Source of the DNA: Escherichia coli
Lineage (GTDB): Bacteria > Pseudomonadota > Gammaproteobacteria > Enterobacterales > Enterobacteriaceae
DNA length: 64,000 nucleotides
Assembly: GCF_041248615.1 (NCBI RefSeq)
Contig: NZ_CP158426.1
Direction: 5' to 3' (one strand)
A program made the position numbers. Positions 33,001-39,000 of this stretch are shown piece by piece. Position 1 is the first letter of the stretch; each line of letters opens with the position of its first letter.

Positions 33001-36000
33001 ATAATAACCTGAATTATAGCGTTCAGGTCGGTAACACCCACGGAGGTAATACATCGTCTGGCACCAGTGGTTACAGTTCTCTTAATTATCGTGGAGCTTA
33101 CGGTAATACGAATGTCGGTTACAGTCGGAGTGGTGACAGCAGCCAGATTTATTACGGAATGAATGGTGGAATTATTGCTCATGCTGATGGCATCACCTTT
33201 GGACAGCCGCTGGGCGACACAATGGTTCTGGTTAAGGCTCCTGGCGCTGATAATGTCAAAATAGAGAACCAGACCGGAATTCATACCGACTGGCGTGGCT
33301 ATGCCATATTACCATTTGCGACAGAATATAGAGAAAATCGTGTCGCTCTTGACGCGAATTCCCTTGCAGATAATGTTGAACTGGATGAAACCGTTGTCGC
33401 TGTCATCCCAACTCACGGTGCTATTGCCAGAGCAACATTTAATGCACAAATCGGCGGGAAAGTATTAATGACGTTGAAGTACGGTAATAAGAGCGTTCCA
33501 TTCGGTGCAATTGTCACACATGGAGAGAATAAAAATGGCAGCATTGTCGCGGAAAACGGTCAGGTTTATCTGACTGGACTTCCACAGTCAGGGAAATTAC
33601 AGGTTTCATGGGGCAAAGATAAAAACTCAAACTGTATTGTCGAGTACAAGCTTCCTGAAGTTTCTCCTGGTACCTTACTGAACCAGCAGACAGCAATCTG
33701 TCGCTAAGGAACAATAGATTATGAAATACAATAACATTATTTTCCTCGGTTTATGTCTGGGGTTAACCACCTATTCTGCTTTATCTGCAGATAGCGTTAT
33801 TAAAATTAGCGGGCGCGTCCTCGATTATGGCTGCACAGTCTCATCGGATTCGCTTAATTTTACCGTAGATCTCCAAAAAAACAGTGCCAGACAATTTCCA
33901 ACGACCGGTAGCACAAGTCCAGCCGTCCCTTTTCAGATTACGTTAAGTGAATGCAGTAAAGGGACAACGGGGGTTCGGGTTGCATTTAACGGTATTGAGG
34001 ATGCAGAAAATAATACTCTGTTGAAACTGGATGAAGGAAGCAATACGGCCTCCGGTTTGGGTATAGAAATACTGGACGGAAATATGCGTCCGGTGAAATT
34101 GAATGACCTTCATGCCGGGATGCAGTGGATCCCACTGGTACCAGAACAGAACAATATTTTGCCTTACTCCGCTCGTCTGAAGTCAACTCAGAAGTCCGTC
34201 AATCCGGGACTGGTGAGGGCTTCGGCAACCTTTACCCTTGAATTTCAATAATCAGAGTCAGATATGAAAAGACTTCACAAGAGGTTCCTGTTAGCTACGT
34301 TTTGCGCGTTATTCACAGCAACTCTCCAGGCCGCCGATGTCACTATCACTGTTAATGGTCGGGTAGTCGCTAAACCCTGCACTATTCAAACCAAAGAAGC
34401 TAACGTTAATCTCGGGGATCTTTATACGCGCAATCTGCAACAACCTGGTTCTGCATCAGGCTGGCACAATATTACTTTGTCATTAACCGATTGTCCGGTT
34501 GAAACAAGTGCAGTGACGGCAATCGTGACAGGTTCAACTGACAATACGGGTTATTACAAAAATGAAGGTACTGCCGAAAATATTCAGATAGAGCTAAGGG
34601 ATGACCAGGATGCGACGTTAAAAAATGGCGATAGCAAAACGGTTATTGTTGATGAGATCACTCGTAATGCACAGTTTCCACTTAAGGCAAGAGCTATCAC
34701 GGTGAATGGAAACGCAAGCCAGGGAACGATCGAGGCGCTAATCAATGTGATCTACACCTGGCAATAACGTCGATTCGATTTTCTTAGCCTCCTTTTTAAA
34801 TCAATTTTTTAACCTTAGGATATATCATGGGTAAAACAATAAGTATGAAGCTTCTGTTCGGTATTTATCTTCTATTAATGGCAGGCAAAGTTTTTGCCTT
34901 CAGTTGTAATGTCGATGGCGGGTCAAGTATTGGAGCAGGTACAACCTCTGTTTATGTTAATCTCGACCCTGTAATACAACCGGGCCAGAATCTGGTTGTA
35001 GACTTGTCTCAGCATATAAGTTGCTGGAATGATTACGGCGGCTGGTACGACACTGATCATATAAACCTGGTACAAGGCTCAGCTTTCGCAGGCTCTCTAC
35101 AGTCATATAAAGGATCGCTGTACTGGAATAATGTGACCTACCCCTTCCCGTTGACGACAAATACTAATGTATTAGATATTGGTGATAAGACACCGATGCC
35201 ATTACCGTTAAAACTCTATATTACCCCAGTCGGTGCGGCCGGTGGAGTTGTCATAAAAGCCGGGGAAGTTATTGCCCGTATTCATATGTATAAAATTGCC
35301 ACGTTAGGAAGCGGAAATCCGCGTAATTTTACGTGGAATATTATTTCAAATAACAGTGTTGTTATGCCAACAGGCGGCTGCACCGTTGATAGTCGTAATG
35401 TCAACGTGAATCTCCCGGACTTTCCTGGAAGCGCAGAAATACCCCTTGGCGTATATTGCTCAAGTGAACAAAAGCTCTCATTTTATCTTTCGGGTGCTAC
35501 CACTGACAGTGCCAGACAAGTGTTTGCTAACACAGCACCAGATGCAACAAAAGCATCGGGAGTGGGTGTCTCTCTGATGCGTAATGGAAAAATACTGGCT
35601 ACGGGAGAAAACGTCTCCCTGGGGACAGTAAATAAAAGCAAAGTACCTCTGGGTTTAAGCGCAACCTATGGACAAACAGGAAACAAAGTTTCAGCCGGAA
35701 CCGTCCAGTCAGTCATTGGTGTCACTTTTATCTATGAATAATTGTGATTTTGACCTTAGTCTATGCGCTCCATTCGCGAAAATTGCGCGGATAATTATTT
35801 TGTGAAGGCTATTATCCTACACCTGTAAGAAAATCCGCGCACAATTGAAGCCAGAGTCTTATTTTTTATATTGAAAAACATGTTAATTTAAACACTATGA
35901 GAGATGATGCTTAACTTATCGTATTTATGCCATTCTATTATTTAACGATAATAGATTAAAAATAGAAAGAGAGTAGTCCCCTACTCTTATATATCCATAT

Positions 36001-39000
36001 TGACGATAATCCCTTTGTATATACTGTGCATCATCGCTATTTCAAATCCTAATAATTCATTTCCACACAGGATAAGTAGATGAAGAAAAAAATTGAATCC
36101 TACCAGGGGGCTGCCGGTGGTTGGGGTGCTGTTAAATCCGTAGCGAATGCAGTACGTAAGCAGATGGATATACGCCAGGATGTTATTGCCATGTTTGACA
36201 TGAATAAGCCAGAGGGCTTTGACTGTCCGGGTTGTGCATGGCCAGATCCTAAGCACAGTGCGTCATTCGACATTTGTGAAAACGGCGCAAAAGCAATCGC
36301 CTGGGAAGTCACGGATAAGCAGGTAAACGCCTCTTTCTTTGCTGAGAATACGGTTCAATCATTACTTACCTGGGGAGATCACGAGCTTGAGGCTGCGGGG
36401 CGTCTCACCCAGCCTTTGAAATATGATGCCGTCAGCGACTGTTACAAGCCATTAAGCTGGCAACAAGCTTTCGACGAAATTGGCGAACGCCTTCAAAGCT
36501 ATAGTGATCCCAATCAGGTTGAATTCTATACTTCGGGCCGCACTTCCAATGAAGCTGCCTTTCTTTATCAGCTTTTTGCTCGTGAATACGGGAGCAATAA
36601 CTTCCCCGACTGTTCCAACATGTGCCATGAACCGACCAGTGTGGGTTTGGCAGCGAGTATCGGTGTAGGTAAAGGGACCGTGTTGCTGGAAGACTTTGAG
36701 AAATGCGATTTAGTCATTTGCATTGGGCATAACCCTGGTACAAACCACCCTCGCATGTTGACTTCGTTGCGCGCTTTAGTGAAACGGGGAGCGAAAATGA
36801 TCGCCATCAATCCTCTACAGGAACGTGGCCTGGAGCGATTTACCGCACCGCAAAACCCGTTTGAAATGCTGACGAACTCTGAGACTCAGTTGGCCAGTGC
36901 CTACTACAACGTGCGCATTGGTGGTGATATGGCGTTGCTCAAGGGGATGATGCGCCTGTTAATTGAGCGCGATGATGCTGCAAGCGCCGCAGGTCGGCCC
37001 TCATTGCTGGATGACGAATTTATTCAAACGCATACCGTCGGCTTTGACGAGCTACGCCGTGACGTTCTCAATTCCGAGTGGAAAGATATCGAGCGTATTT
37101 CTGGACTAAGTCAGACTCAAATCGCCGAACTGGCTGATGCATATGCCGCTGCCGAACGCACCATTATCTGTTACGGAATGGGGATCACTCAGCACGAACA
37201 TGGTACCCAGAATGTACAGCAACTGGTCAATCTGCTGTTGATGAAAGGTAACATTGGCAAGCCTGGTGCGGGTATCTGCCCACTACGAGGTCACTCTAAT
37301 GTACAGGGCGACCGAACCGTCGGTATCACCGAGAAACCGTCTGCAGAGTTTCTGGCTCGCCTGGGTGAGCGCTATGGTTTCACCCCACCTCATGCACCTG
37401 GACATGCTGCAATTGCCAGCATGCAAGCAATATGTACGGGGCAGGCTCGAGCATTGATCTGCATGGGGGGCAACTTTGCTCTGGCAATGCCAGATCGGGA
37501 AGCGAGCGCTGTACCGTTAACACAATTAGATCTGACGGTACACGTAGCCACTAAGCTTAACCGCTCTCATCTGCTGACCGCACGGCATAGCTATATTCTG
37601 CCGGTTCTGGGACGCAGCGAGATTGACATGCAAAAAAGCGGTGCGCAGGCGGTAACCGTTGAGGATTCAATGTCGATGATTCATGCCTCGCGTGGCGTGT
37701 TAAAACCCGCCGGTGTAATGCTGAAATCAGAGTGTGCAGTGGTCGCGGGAATCGCGCAGGCAGCACTACCCCAGAGCGTGGTAGCCTGGGAGTATCTGGT
37801 GGAAGATTATGATCGCATTCGCAATGACATTGAAGCTGTGCTGCCAGAGTTCGCCGACTATAACCAGCGCATCCGTCATCCCGGTGGTTTTCACCTGATA
37901 AATGCAGCTGCTGAAAGGCGCTGGATGACGCCGTCAGGTAAGGCTAATTTCATTACCAGTAAAGGGCTGTTAGAAGATCCCTCTTCAGCGTTTAACAGTA
38001 AGCTAGTCATGGCGACAGTACGCAGTCACGATCAGTACAACACGACGATTTATGGTATGGATGATCGCTATCGAGGGGTATTCGGTCAACGAGATGTGGT
38101 CTTTATGAGTGCTAAACAAGCTAAAATTTGCCGTGTAAAAAACGGCGAAAGAGTTAATCTTATTGCGCTTACGCCAGACGGTAAGCGAAGCTCACGCCGC
38201 ATGGATAGATTAAAAGTGGTCATTTACCCTATGGCTGACCGCTCACTGGTGACCTATTTTCCAGAATCGAATCACATGCTAACACTTGATAACCACGATC
38301 CATTAAGTGGCATTCCTGGCTATAAAAGTATTCCGGTTGAATTAGAACCATCAAATTAATTCGCCTCCTCATTTCTTCTGCTGTCATCCGCACAGCAGAA
38401 GAATTCCTCATTGACCATTGTCGCGCAATTTACTCACATGTGCTAAATTAAACTGCTCGTTATAAGATATATACCTCCGCCTACAGCTGTAAGAAACTCC
38501 GCTCAGTACTGAAGCGCCAGTCCTATTTCCTCTATTCTCCAGCCTGTTATATTAAGCATACTGATTAACGATGCTTAACGTCATTCGTTTAATAAACACA
38601 TTTGAAATGCATGCGACCATAGTGAAAAATAAAATCACGCAAAGAGACAACTATAAAGGGATCATGTCTGTAATTGTGGTTGTCTTATTACTGACCCTTA
38701 CATTGATAGCCATTTTTTCGGCAATTGATCAGCTGGGTATTTCAGAAATGGGTCGCATTGCAAGGGATCTTACACACTTCATTATCAATAGTTTGCAAGA
38801 CTGAAAATAAACAGCAAATTATAAATATGAAATGTTAAAAAAGTATCGATAAAAACTTTATTGTTTTAAGGAGATAAAATGTCGCTCGTTTGTTCTGTTA
38901 TATTTATTCATCATGCCTTCAACGCTAACATTTTAGATAAAGATTACGCCTTCTCTGACGGCGAGATCCTGATGGTAGATAACGCTGTTCGTACGCATTT

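Follow-up and report, generated by a model that had tools for sequence, protein, structure and literature searches.

The promoters of ydeP and of the safA-ydeO operon of Escherichia coli each carry an 18-bp inverted repeat, and, judging from the sequence, these repeats are very probably binding sites for dimers of phosphorylated EvgA (EvgA~P) in distant-activator promoters that form one duplicated cassette. Both sites are already known as EvgA docking sites and belong to the usual, conserved make-up of E. coli; what is added here is that each of them lies within a promoter segment of about 100 bases that is duplicated between the two operons. The window, that is, the whole stretch of 64,000 nucleotides analysed, corresponds to E. 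coli NRZ14408, with 15,301 of 15,301 bases identical, and the annotation of this identical genome bears out the gene names ydeP, safA and ydeO given in an earlier note on the same DNA (Table 1).

Table 1. Features of the ydeP and safA-ydeO promoter regions, in window coordinates
Feature	Position	Strand	Description	Basis
Predicted EvgA box, ydeP promoter	35814..35831	+	ATCCTACAccTGTAAGAA (also ATCCTACACCTGTAAGAA)	sequence, chance, matrix, lineage conservation
Predicted EvgA box, safA-ydeO promoter	38478..38495	+	CGCCTACAgcTGTAAGAA (also CGCCTACAGCTGTAAGAA)	sequence, chance, matrix, lineage conservation
Promoter cassette, copy 1	35816..35917	+	box, conserved spacer, putative extended -10, first ~20-21 transcribed nt ending GATGCTTAAC(T)	direct repeat
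Promoter cassette, copy 2	38480..38581	+	upstream of safA-ydeO	direct repeat
Putative extended -10 of ydeP	35881..35889	+	TGtTAATTT	read from sequence
Putative homologous extended -10 of safA	38545..38553	+	TGtTATATT	same register in ungapped repeat
Alternative sigma-70-like match in cassette	35845..35872	+	TTGAAG-16-TATATT	promoter scan; TGAAG invariant
ydeP CDS	36080..38359	+	759 aa, 756/759 identical to K-12	annotation of identical genome
Perfect 12-bp hairpin	38373..38403	+	TTCTTCTGCTGT / ACAGCAGAAGAA, directly after ydeP stop	read from sequence
safA CDS	38607..38804	+	65 aa, 60/65 identical to K-12	annotation of identical genome
ydeO CDS	38879..39640	+	253 aa, 247/253 identical to K-12	annotation of identical genome

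The two 18-bp inverted repeats

On re-reading, both 18-mers were found with the sequences and at the positions that the earlier note had reported. Its description of them as the same 18-bp palindrome holds in so far as they are near-identical inverted repeats; only 15 of the 18 positions are common to both, and neither palindrome is perfect. The EvgA box is presumably described by the consensus TTCYTACA-N2-TGTARGAA, for which the support given here is computational, and the likeness to it that had been claimed is found at one mismatch in the ydeP box and two in the safA box. The gene-proximal arm is perfect in both boxes; degeneracy is confined to the gene-distal arm (ATCCTACA and CGCCTACA against TTCYTACA), which departs from the consensus at position 1 in the ydeP box and at positions 1-2 in the safA box. 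Both boxes lie upstream of their genes, at 266 nt from the start codon of ydeP and 129 nt from that of safA.

Resemblance to the consensus might arise by chance in AT-rich intergenic DNA, and a tolerance of three mismatches would leave room for such a reading, with 0.66 matches expected per window and 16 of 100 shuffles reaching two. However, the actual mismatches number one and two, and at no more than two mismatches the full consensus TTCYTACANNTGTARGAA matches only these two sites in the window, with 0.06 expected and no shuffle holding two; likewise, the window holds two copies of CCTACANNTGTAAGAA, against none in 100 dinucleotide-preserving shuffles. Both sites, moreover, precede genes known as EvgA targets, and over 5300 E. 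coli genomes have kept them. The probability of a chance origin is thus vanishingly small, and the shuffle counts together with the matrix ranks given below have effectively refuted it already. The 18-mer was also considered as a hairpin or terminator, and this was rejected, as a loop of only 2 nt does not form and as promoters unrelated by homology carry the motif as well. As for true hairpins, the one that follows the ydeP stop codon is terminator-like and sits between ydeP and the safA promoter; the terminator scan passed over it because its T-run is weak. No known RNA family was found between 35600 and 39000 at E<=1.

Evidence from the EvgA regulon

The identification as EvgA boxes draws on the consensus match, the occurrence of the motif across the regulon, the matrix ranks, a consensus-free recovery and published work on direct control, all of which point to the same reading. 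When K-12 was scanned at no more than two mismatches, matches were obtained upstream of safA, ydeP, emrK/evgA, frc, yfdX and yegR, with one stray match inside the mdtE coding sequence; in 164 kb of NRZ14408, all five matches at this threshold fell at EvgA-regulon promoters. The motif was absent from 478 kb of loci that represent about 50 further species, E. coli-derived contigs excepted, so that over about 700 kb scanned it is almost confined to EvgA-regulon upstream regions. A matrix was then built from the other regulon sites, with the ydeP and safA sites left out, and in the 64 kb it placed the ydeP box first (23.1 bits) and the safA box second (16.4 bits), the third-best score being 7.2 bits. 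This validation is partly circular because the other sites had been found with the same consensus; the circularity is mitigated in that the motif was also recovered without the consensus from six upstream regions of the regulon, at a summed distance of 18, against 25-26 in shuffles.

EvgA is a member of the NarL family (PMC9496106). It has been reported that ydeP and emrKY are under direct EvgA control (PMC8174306), that phosphorylated EvgA directly controls safA-ydeO and yfdX (PMC5706723), and that inverted repeats at yfdX and yfdW are bound by EvgA (PMC3720670); the first two of these reports agree with the earlier statement that ydeP and safA-ydeO are EvgA-activated. The boxes of the K-12 EvgA regulon (ydeP, safA/b1500-ydeO, emrKY/evgAS, yfdX, frc/yfdW and yegR) share this 18-bp inverted repeat; the K-12 ydeP and safA promoters are orthologous loci with the same regulator, and their boxes have the same position relative to the genes. 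The only differences are single bases in the weak distal arm, where AT of the window stands against AG of K-12 in the ydeP box, and CG against TG in the safA box, so that the ydeP box of the window is one mismatch closer to the consensus than that of K-12, and the safA box one further from it.

A promoter segment duplicated between the two operons

The similarity of the two promoters extends well beyond the 18 bp, which the earlier note had not described: about 102 nt align without gaps between 35816-35917 and 38480-38581, and a direct repeat of 100 nt with 71% identity was recorded at a spacing of 2664. In the 84 nt past the box, the ungapped identity is 66.7%, whereas all of 20000 shuffles stayed at or below 43%; elsewhere in the window this stretch aligns at 51% at best, and the other EvgA promoters show only 19-39% identity to the post-box sequence. 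Both copies are also present in a divergent lineage labelled as E. coli. As the alignments indicate, the cassette is a duplicated promoter confined to the ydeP/safA pair. Homology upstream of the boxes (TTGACCnTnGTC) was rejected as not significant, 727 of 2000 shuffles scoring as well. A third copy or a dispersed family was not found by BLAST in 5426 E. coli genomes (median, one place per genome), a search which at that database size misses even the 71% safA copy, so that weaker copies could go undetected. Unlike dispersed or mobile repeats, the cassette has two copies per genome, no terminal repeats and no transposase. It resembles the growth of a regulon by duplication of promoter segments, in that two adjacent operons share activator site, core promoter and transcript start.

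Since the boxes are paralogous copies within one duplicated segment, their likeness to each other does not amount to two independent pieces of evidence. That is to say, common descent within the 102-nt repeat could account for the likeness by itself, and the 18-mer might be a relic of duplication with no function of its own, or be bound by PhoP~P, a YdeO-dependent repressor, RcsB, GadE or another LuxR-type regulator; repression of the safA promoter by PhoP~P and through YdeO-dependent feedback has in fact been reported (bioRxiv 10.64898/2026.05.06.723403; PMC11210196). Against this stands the presence of the same motif at emrK/evgA, frc, yfdX and yegR, which have no other homology with the cassette and have EvgA control as their shared trait, and the relic reading is further opposed by a box core that is invariant in nine lineages while its flanks vary. 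Such readings are very improbable, and binding by EvgA~P is the preferred one.

Among the nine E. coli lineages, variation in the boxes is confined to positions 1, 2 and 8 and to the N2 spacer (positions 9 and 10); positions 3-7 and 11-18 of the ydeP box are invariant, and the safA box differs among the lineages at no position but 1 and, in the spacer, 10. Invariant columns make up 71-90% of the cassette, against 40-43% just upstream. Outside Escherichia, the nearest YdeP homologues (Edwardsiella, 84-85%; Yersinia rohdei, 67%) have no box, and their upstream DNA is unrelated. According to published work, evgAS and safA-ydeO are specific to E. coli (PMC5706723), and the absence of the box outside Escherichia agrees with this.

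Core promoter and proposed mechanism of activation

For the ydeP leader of K-12, a probe spanning -178 to +10 has been described (PMC11210196), and owing to a 5-nt leader indel between K-12 and the window, K-12 -178 maps to 35897. If the 5′ end of the probe is taken as the transcript start, the start site of ydeP would be A35897, the box centre would lie at about -74.5, and the start site of safA would be expected near 38560-38561, the last being deduced solely from homology. A different core promoter, TTGAAG-16-TATATT, would place the start near 35879 and the box centre at about -57, adjoining the -35; it is the only sigma-70-like match from the scan of the ydeP upstream region, and its TGAAG is unchanged in every lineage and in either paralogue. 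Nevertheless, chance alone would give 2.1 promoter-like matches in this region, more than the one observed, the mapped probe start falls 7-8 nt downstream of TGtTAATTT, and the block TG.TA..TTAA, invariant in a 6-way alignment, is as constant as TGAAG. Moreover, the safA counterpart, CTGAAG-16-TCTATT, has a poor -10 (TCTATT; TCTTTT in K-12). This alternative is accordingly regarded as unlikely, and the extended -10 elements are preferred.

With these elements, the following mechanism can be proposed. In the EvgS/EvgA system the response regulator is EvgA, of the NarL/FixJ type; EvgA~P would bind each inverted repeat as a dimer, centred some 74 bp before an activator-dependent promoter consisting of an extended -10 (TGtTAATTT or TGtTATATT) with no good -35. 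Upon activation of EvgS, the bound EvgA would recruit RNA polymerase, presumably through a contact between the two. In this way ydeP would be switched on, and separately safA-ydeO, which would lead into the YdeO-GadE and SafA-PhoQ branches.

A similar arrangement is known for BvgA of Bordetella, the named homologue of EvgA, which at Pfha and Pptx likewise uses a strong inverted-repeat primary site at a long distance upstream of a weak core promoter. Sites of both regulators contain the half-site word TTCCTA/TAAGAA. The difference is that the BvgA site, TAAGAAA|TTTCCTA, has abutting arms, whereas TTCYTACA-N2-TGTARGAA of EvgA has the same words in opposite order and 6 bp apart. In Bordetella, further BvgA dimers are bound every 22 bp down to the -35, at weak sites that are unpredictable from sequence (PMC7250471). 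In the cassette, short palindromes occur downstream of the box centre, CAATTG at 22 bp (ydeP) and TCAGTACTGA at 21 bp (safA), which are shifted by 1 bp between the copies and so give no clean compensatory signal. A search of the cassette for secondary EvgA sites with the EvgA matrix gave no position above 0 but the boxes, which makes multi-dimer binding here only conjecture; the weak BvgA sites are likewise unpredictable from sequence.

The 50 bp between box and -10 are unusually conserved in the cassette. The conserved blocks outside the box read AAA.T.CGC.CA, TGAAG, AGTC.TATTT and GAT...TAAC (about +10 to +19). It is possible, though doubtful, that they form a second layer of control shared by both promoters, either additional EvgA dimers of low affinity, phased at about 22 bp from the primary site in the manner of BvgA, or an operator common to both promoters for the negative feedback through YdeO or PhoP that has been reported for them.

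The circuit in the source strain and its significance

It had been supposed that the EvgAS circuit is probably preserved in this strain, and as regards the wiring this is borne out. The EvgA of NRZ14408 is identical to that of K-12 (204/204), EvgS is full length with 1171 of 1197 residues (97.83%) identical to K-12, boxes are present at yfdX, frc and emrK/evgA, and YdeP, SafA and YdeO are intact. The acid sensing of EvgS differs among E. coli despite conserved wiring: EvgS of group B2, at 96.4-96.7% identity, is mostly unresponsive to acid, and that of EDL933 likewise has 97.83% (PMC5706723). Given this variation between strains, acid responsiveness cannot be deduced from the boxes. In NRZ14408 the EvgA wiring for acid resistance in exponential phase, with boxes, target genes and intact evgA and evgS, is the standard one, a result of small practical value which includes the warning that conserved boxes do not prove retained EvgS acid sensing.

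As to the regulon itself, promoters that are copies of one ancestral cassette of about 102 bp would mean that the second operon joined by duplication and not through the independent evolution of a site, which makes the cassette a tidy case of regulon expansion by the copying of a whole promoter. The feedback to which the ydeP and safA promoters are known to be subject may reside in the conserved blocks outside the box; if a second layer of control of either proposed kind exists, the cassette would amount to a "pulse-generating" promoter unit that is portable and that E. coli copied to bring a second operon into the EvgA regulon.

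The ydeP–safA–ydeO Locus

Genes were identified by a megablast search of 5,426 complete E. coli genomes, 5,386 of which contain the 3-kb region; the window matches E. coli NRZ14408 (NZ_LT599825.1), its source genome, at 15,301/15,301 bases. The fimbrial genes ydeQRST lie on the upstream side of ydeP-safA-ydeO, and since hairpins follow both ydeQ and ydeP, each of the two 18-mers (boxes) has a promoter region of its own. In addition, the usher gene ydeT is an intact 883-aa frame (31056-33707), likewise in NRZ14408; the K-12 ydeT entry has just 1,149 nt and specifies a truncated usher-domain protein. 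The locus is undergoing natural decay in some strains: ydeP carries an internal stop in UPEC957C (L058 380-2659), IS1203 is inserted within the matched ydeP-safA stretch of strain 12690 (hit H29), and Ecol_542 (hit H55) matches the 3-kb query solely over its final 110 nt, which lie at safA.

Table. Features of the two promoter regions and their genes (window coordinates)
Feature	Position	Basis or remark
Terminator-like hairpin, 3′ of ydeQ	35772-35792	promoter/terminator scan
ydeP-upstream box ATCCTACACCTGTAAGAA	35814-35831	read from sequence
Palindrome CAATTG	35842-35847	22 bp downstream of ydeP box centre
ydeP putative extended -10 element, TGtTAATTT	35881-35889	A35897 7-8 nt downstream
ydeP	36080-38359	megablast
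Perfect 12-bp hairpin, 3′ of ydeP	38373-38403	read from sequence
safA-ydeO-upstream box CGCCTACAGCTGTAAGAA	38478-38495	read from sequence
Palindrome TCAGTACTGA	38503-38512	21 bp downstream of safA box centre
safA putative extended -10 element, TGtTATATT	38545-38553	register as in ydeP copy
safA	38607-38804	megablast
ydeO	38879-39640	megablast

EvgA as the Probable Binder of Both Boxes

The boxes lie exactly where the earlier note had placed them, and the common core it had read, CCTACA-N2-TGTAAGAA, is present at two places in the 64-kb window and absent from all 100 dinucleotide-preserving shuffles. Scans were made with TTCYTACA-N2-TGTARGAA, which we take to be the EvgA consensus; the likeness claimed for the boxes was borne out, with one mismatch at ydeP and two at safA, and they are the sole window matches with ≤2 mismatches (0.06 expected). 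As for their being the same 18-bp palindrome, 15/18 positions are common and the gene-proximal arm TGTAAGAA is perfect in both, but the sites are not literally identical, the degeneracy falling in the distal arms.

Among K-12 regulon loci, matches with ≤2 mismatches lie upstream of safA, ydeP, emrK/evgA, frc, yfdX and yegR, the frc site being the perfect TTCTTACAACTGTAAGAA. The single stray K-12 match, TTCTTACGCATGAAAGAA with 2 mismatches (L004 5887-5904; K-12 3659886-3659903), falls within the mdtE coding sequence and is probably due to chance; the literature describes mdtEF expression as dependent on EvgA. Within 164 kb of the source genome, 5/5 matches at this threshold lie at EvgA-regulon promoters, and none was found outside E. 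coli-derived contigs in 478 kb from ~50 other species. Moreover, a weight matrix trained on EvgA sites other than ydeP and safA ranks these two 1 and 2 in the window (23.1 and 16.4 bits), the third-best 18-mer scoring 7.2. The same motif emerged from a consensus-free search for the 18-mer best common to six regulon upstream regions (summed distance 18; shuffles gave 25-26).

It has been reported that EvgA, a NarL-family regulator (PMC9496106), binds inverted repeats at yfdX and yfdWUVE (PMC3720670) and regulates ydeP and emrKY directly (PMC8174306), and that its phosphorylated form controls safA-ydeO and directly activates yfdX (PMC5706723). That is to say, the EvgA control of ydeP and safA-ydeO asserted for K-12 is stated in published work.

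A Duplicated Promoter Cassette

The resemblance of the two promoters extends beyond 18 bp: 35816 to 35917 aligns without gaps to 38480 to 38581, and the repeat search returned a direct repeat of 100 nt (71% identity, spacing 2664). The 84 nt past the box are 66.7% identical, a level to be set against 0/20,000 shuffles above 43% and 51% at the next-best location anywhere in the window. The homology has an abrupt start within the distal arm, and its last stretch is GATGCTTAAC(T). When other EvgA promoters were aligned to this segment by their boxes, identity was just 19-39%, so the homology is specific to the ydeP/safA pair. The divergent E. coli-labelled lineage L006 also has the two copies, and the duplication is thus old; a search of E. 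coli genomes at BLAST sensitivity gave no third copy. Judged from the alignments, the two boxes are paralogous pieces of a single duplicated promoter cassette and their mutual resemblance reflects mainly common descent; box function is supported by conservation and by the regulon promoters that are not related to this pair.

Promoter Architecture and Leader RNA

The K-12 and window leaders differ by a 5-nt indel, so the K-12 position -178 (5′ end of the leader probe in PMC11210196) maps to A35897. Aligning six sequences from the two paralogues shows no variation in the block TG.TA..TTAA. With A35897 as the inferred start site, both boxes would be centred near -74.5, and the cassette would end near +21. 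Alternatively, the core promoter might be TTGAAG-16-TATATT (35845-35872), placing the box near -57, which we consider unlikely. For the conserved blocks between box and -10 there are two candidate uses. In BvgA, extra dimers are arrayed every 22 bp (PMC7250471), and a similar array of added EvgA dimers would be an attractive analogy; the palindromes near the two boxes recall that spacing, but they are mutually offset by 1 bp and lack EvgA-matrix support, the matrix giving no secondary EvgA site in the cassette. The other candidate use is the PhoP- and YdeO-dependent repression reported for these promoters (PMC11210196; bioRxiv 10.64898/2026.05.06.723403).

The inferred 183-nt ydeP leader (35897-36090) is predicted to have a strong fold (-37.7 kcal/mol; z = -3.25; 0/200 shuffles fold as well) and has no Rfam match. 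In the predicted long-range helix, GAUGAUGC at the cassette 3′ end pairs with GCAUCAUC near 36028-36035; both arms are invariant in nine lineages and therefore give no covariation evidence. Two internal hairpins are also predicted, one being AGAGUAG/CUACUCU (35970-35987).

Conservation and Distribution

The nine lineages comprise the window, K-12, O157:H7, five more E. coli strains (96.6-98.0% identical to the window) and L006. In both boxes positions 3-7 and 11-18 are constant; variation is confined to positions 2 and 8 and both spacer bases at ydeP, and to position 1 and a single spacer base at safA. From box to ~+21, 71-90% of columns are invariant, against 40-43% in the 70 nt preceding each box. 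At the end of the safA cassette copy (38570-38579), the window and 23AR0762 have GATGCTTAAC, L006 has GATGCATAAC, and K-12, like most other lineages, has GATTTTTAAC. Since 23AR0762 is K-12-like upstream of the box and window-like downstream, its sequence suggests a recombination mosaic.

Beyond Escherichia, the nearest YdeP homologues are those of Edwardsiella (L007, L008, L010; 84-85% identity) and Yersinia rohdei (L009; 67% identity), and Escherichia matches in this search were E. coli-labelled or contaminant contigs only, other named Escherichia species being absent; this distribution suggests that ydeP was horizontally transferred. No EvgA-like box was found upstream of the homologues in L007-L010. 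A YdeP 100% identical to the window's in the best aligned segment is also encoded by a 13-kb contig (JARKOR010000108.1, L005) that is labelled as a metagenome-assembled genome of 'Candidatus Nanosynbacter'. Both boxes of this contig (2092-2109 and 4751-4768) are in their K-12 versions, and the contig almost certainly entered the metagenome bin as an E. coli contaminant.

State of the EvgS/EvgA Circuit

The suggestion that the acid-resistance circuit is probably preserved holds for the wiring. In NRZ14408, EvgA equals that of K-12 (204/204), evgS is full length (26 substitutions, 97.83% identity), boxes are present at yfdX, frc and emrK/evgA, and YdeP (756/759), SafA (60/65) and YdeO (247/253) are intact. 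However, EvgS acid responsiveness varies among E. coli despite conserved wiring (PMC5706723), so acid sensing cannot be read from boxes: most group B2 alleles (96.4-96.7% identity) do not respond, and the EvgS of EDL933 is likewise at 97.83% identity (PMC5706723). In the source genome, oxc, a member of the EvgA-regulated cluster yfdX-frc-oxc-yfdV-yfdE, is split by IS1B (L057 38665-40893; NZ_LT599825.1 1608665-1610893), so the oxalate-decarboxylation output branch of the regulon is probably broken in this strain.

The window sites are orthologues of the K-12 ydeP and safA EvgA boxes, from which they differ solely in single bases of the weak distal arms, and were thus already known; to these known sites, the cassette duplication is a modest addition.
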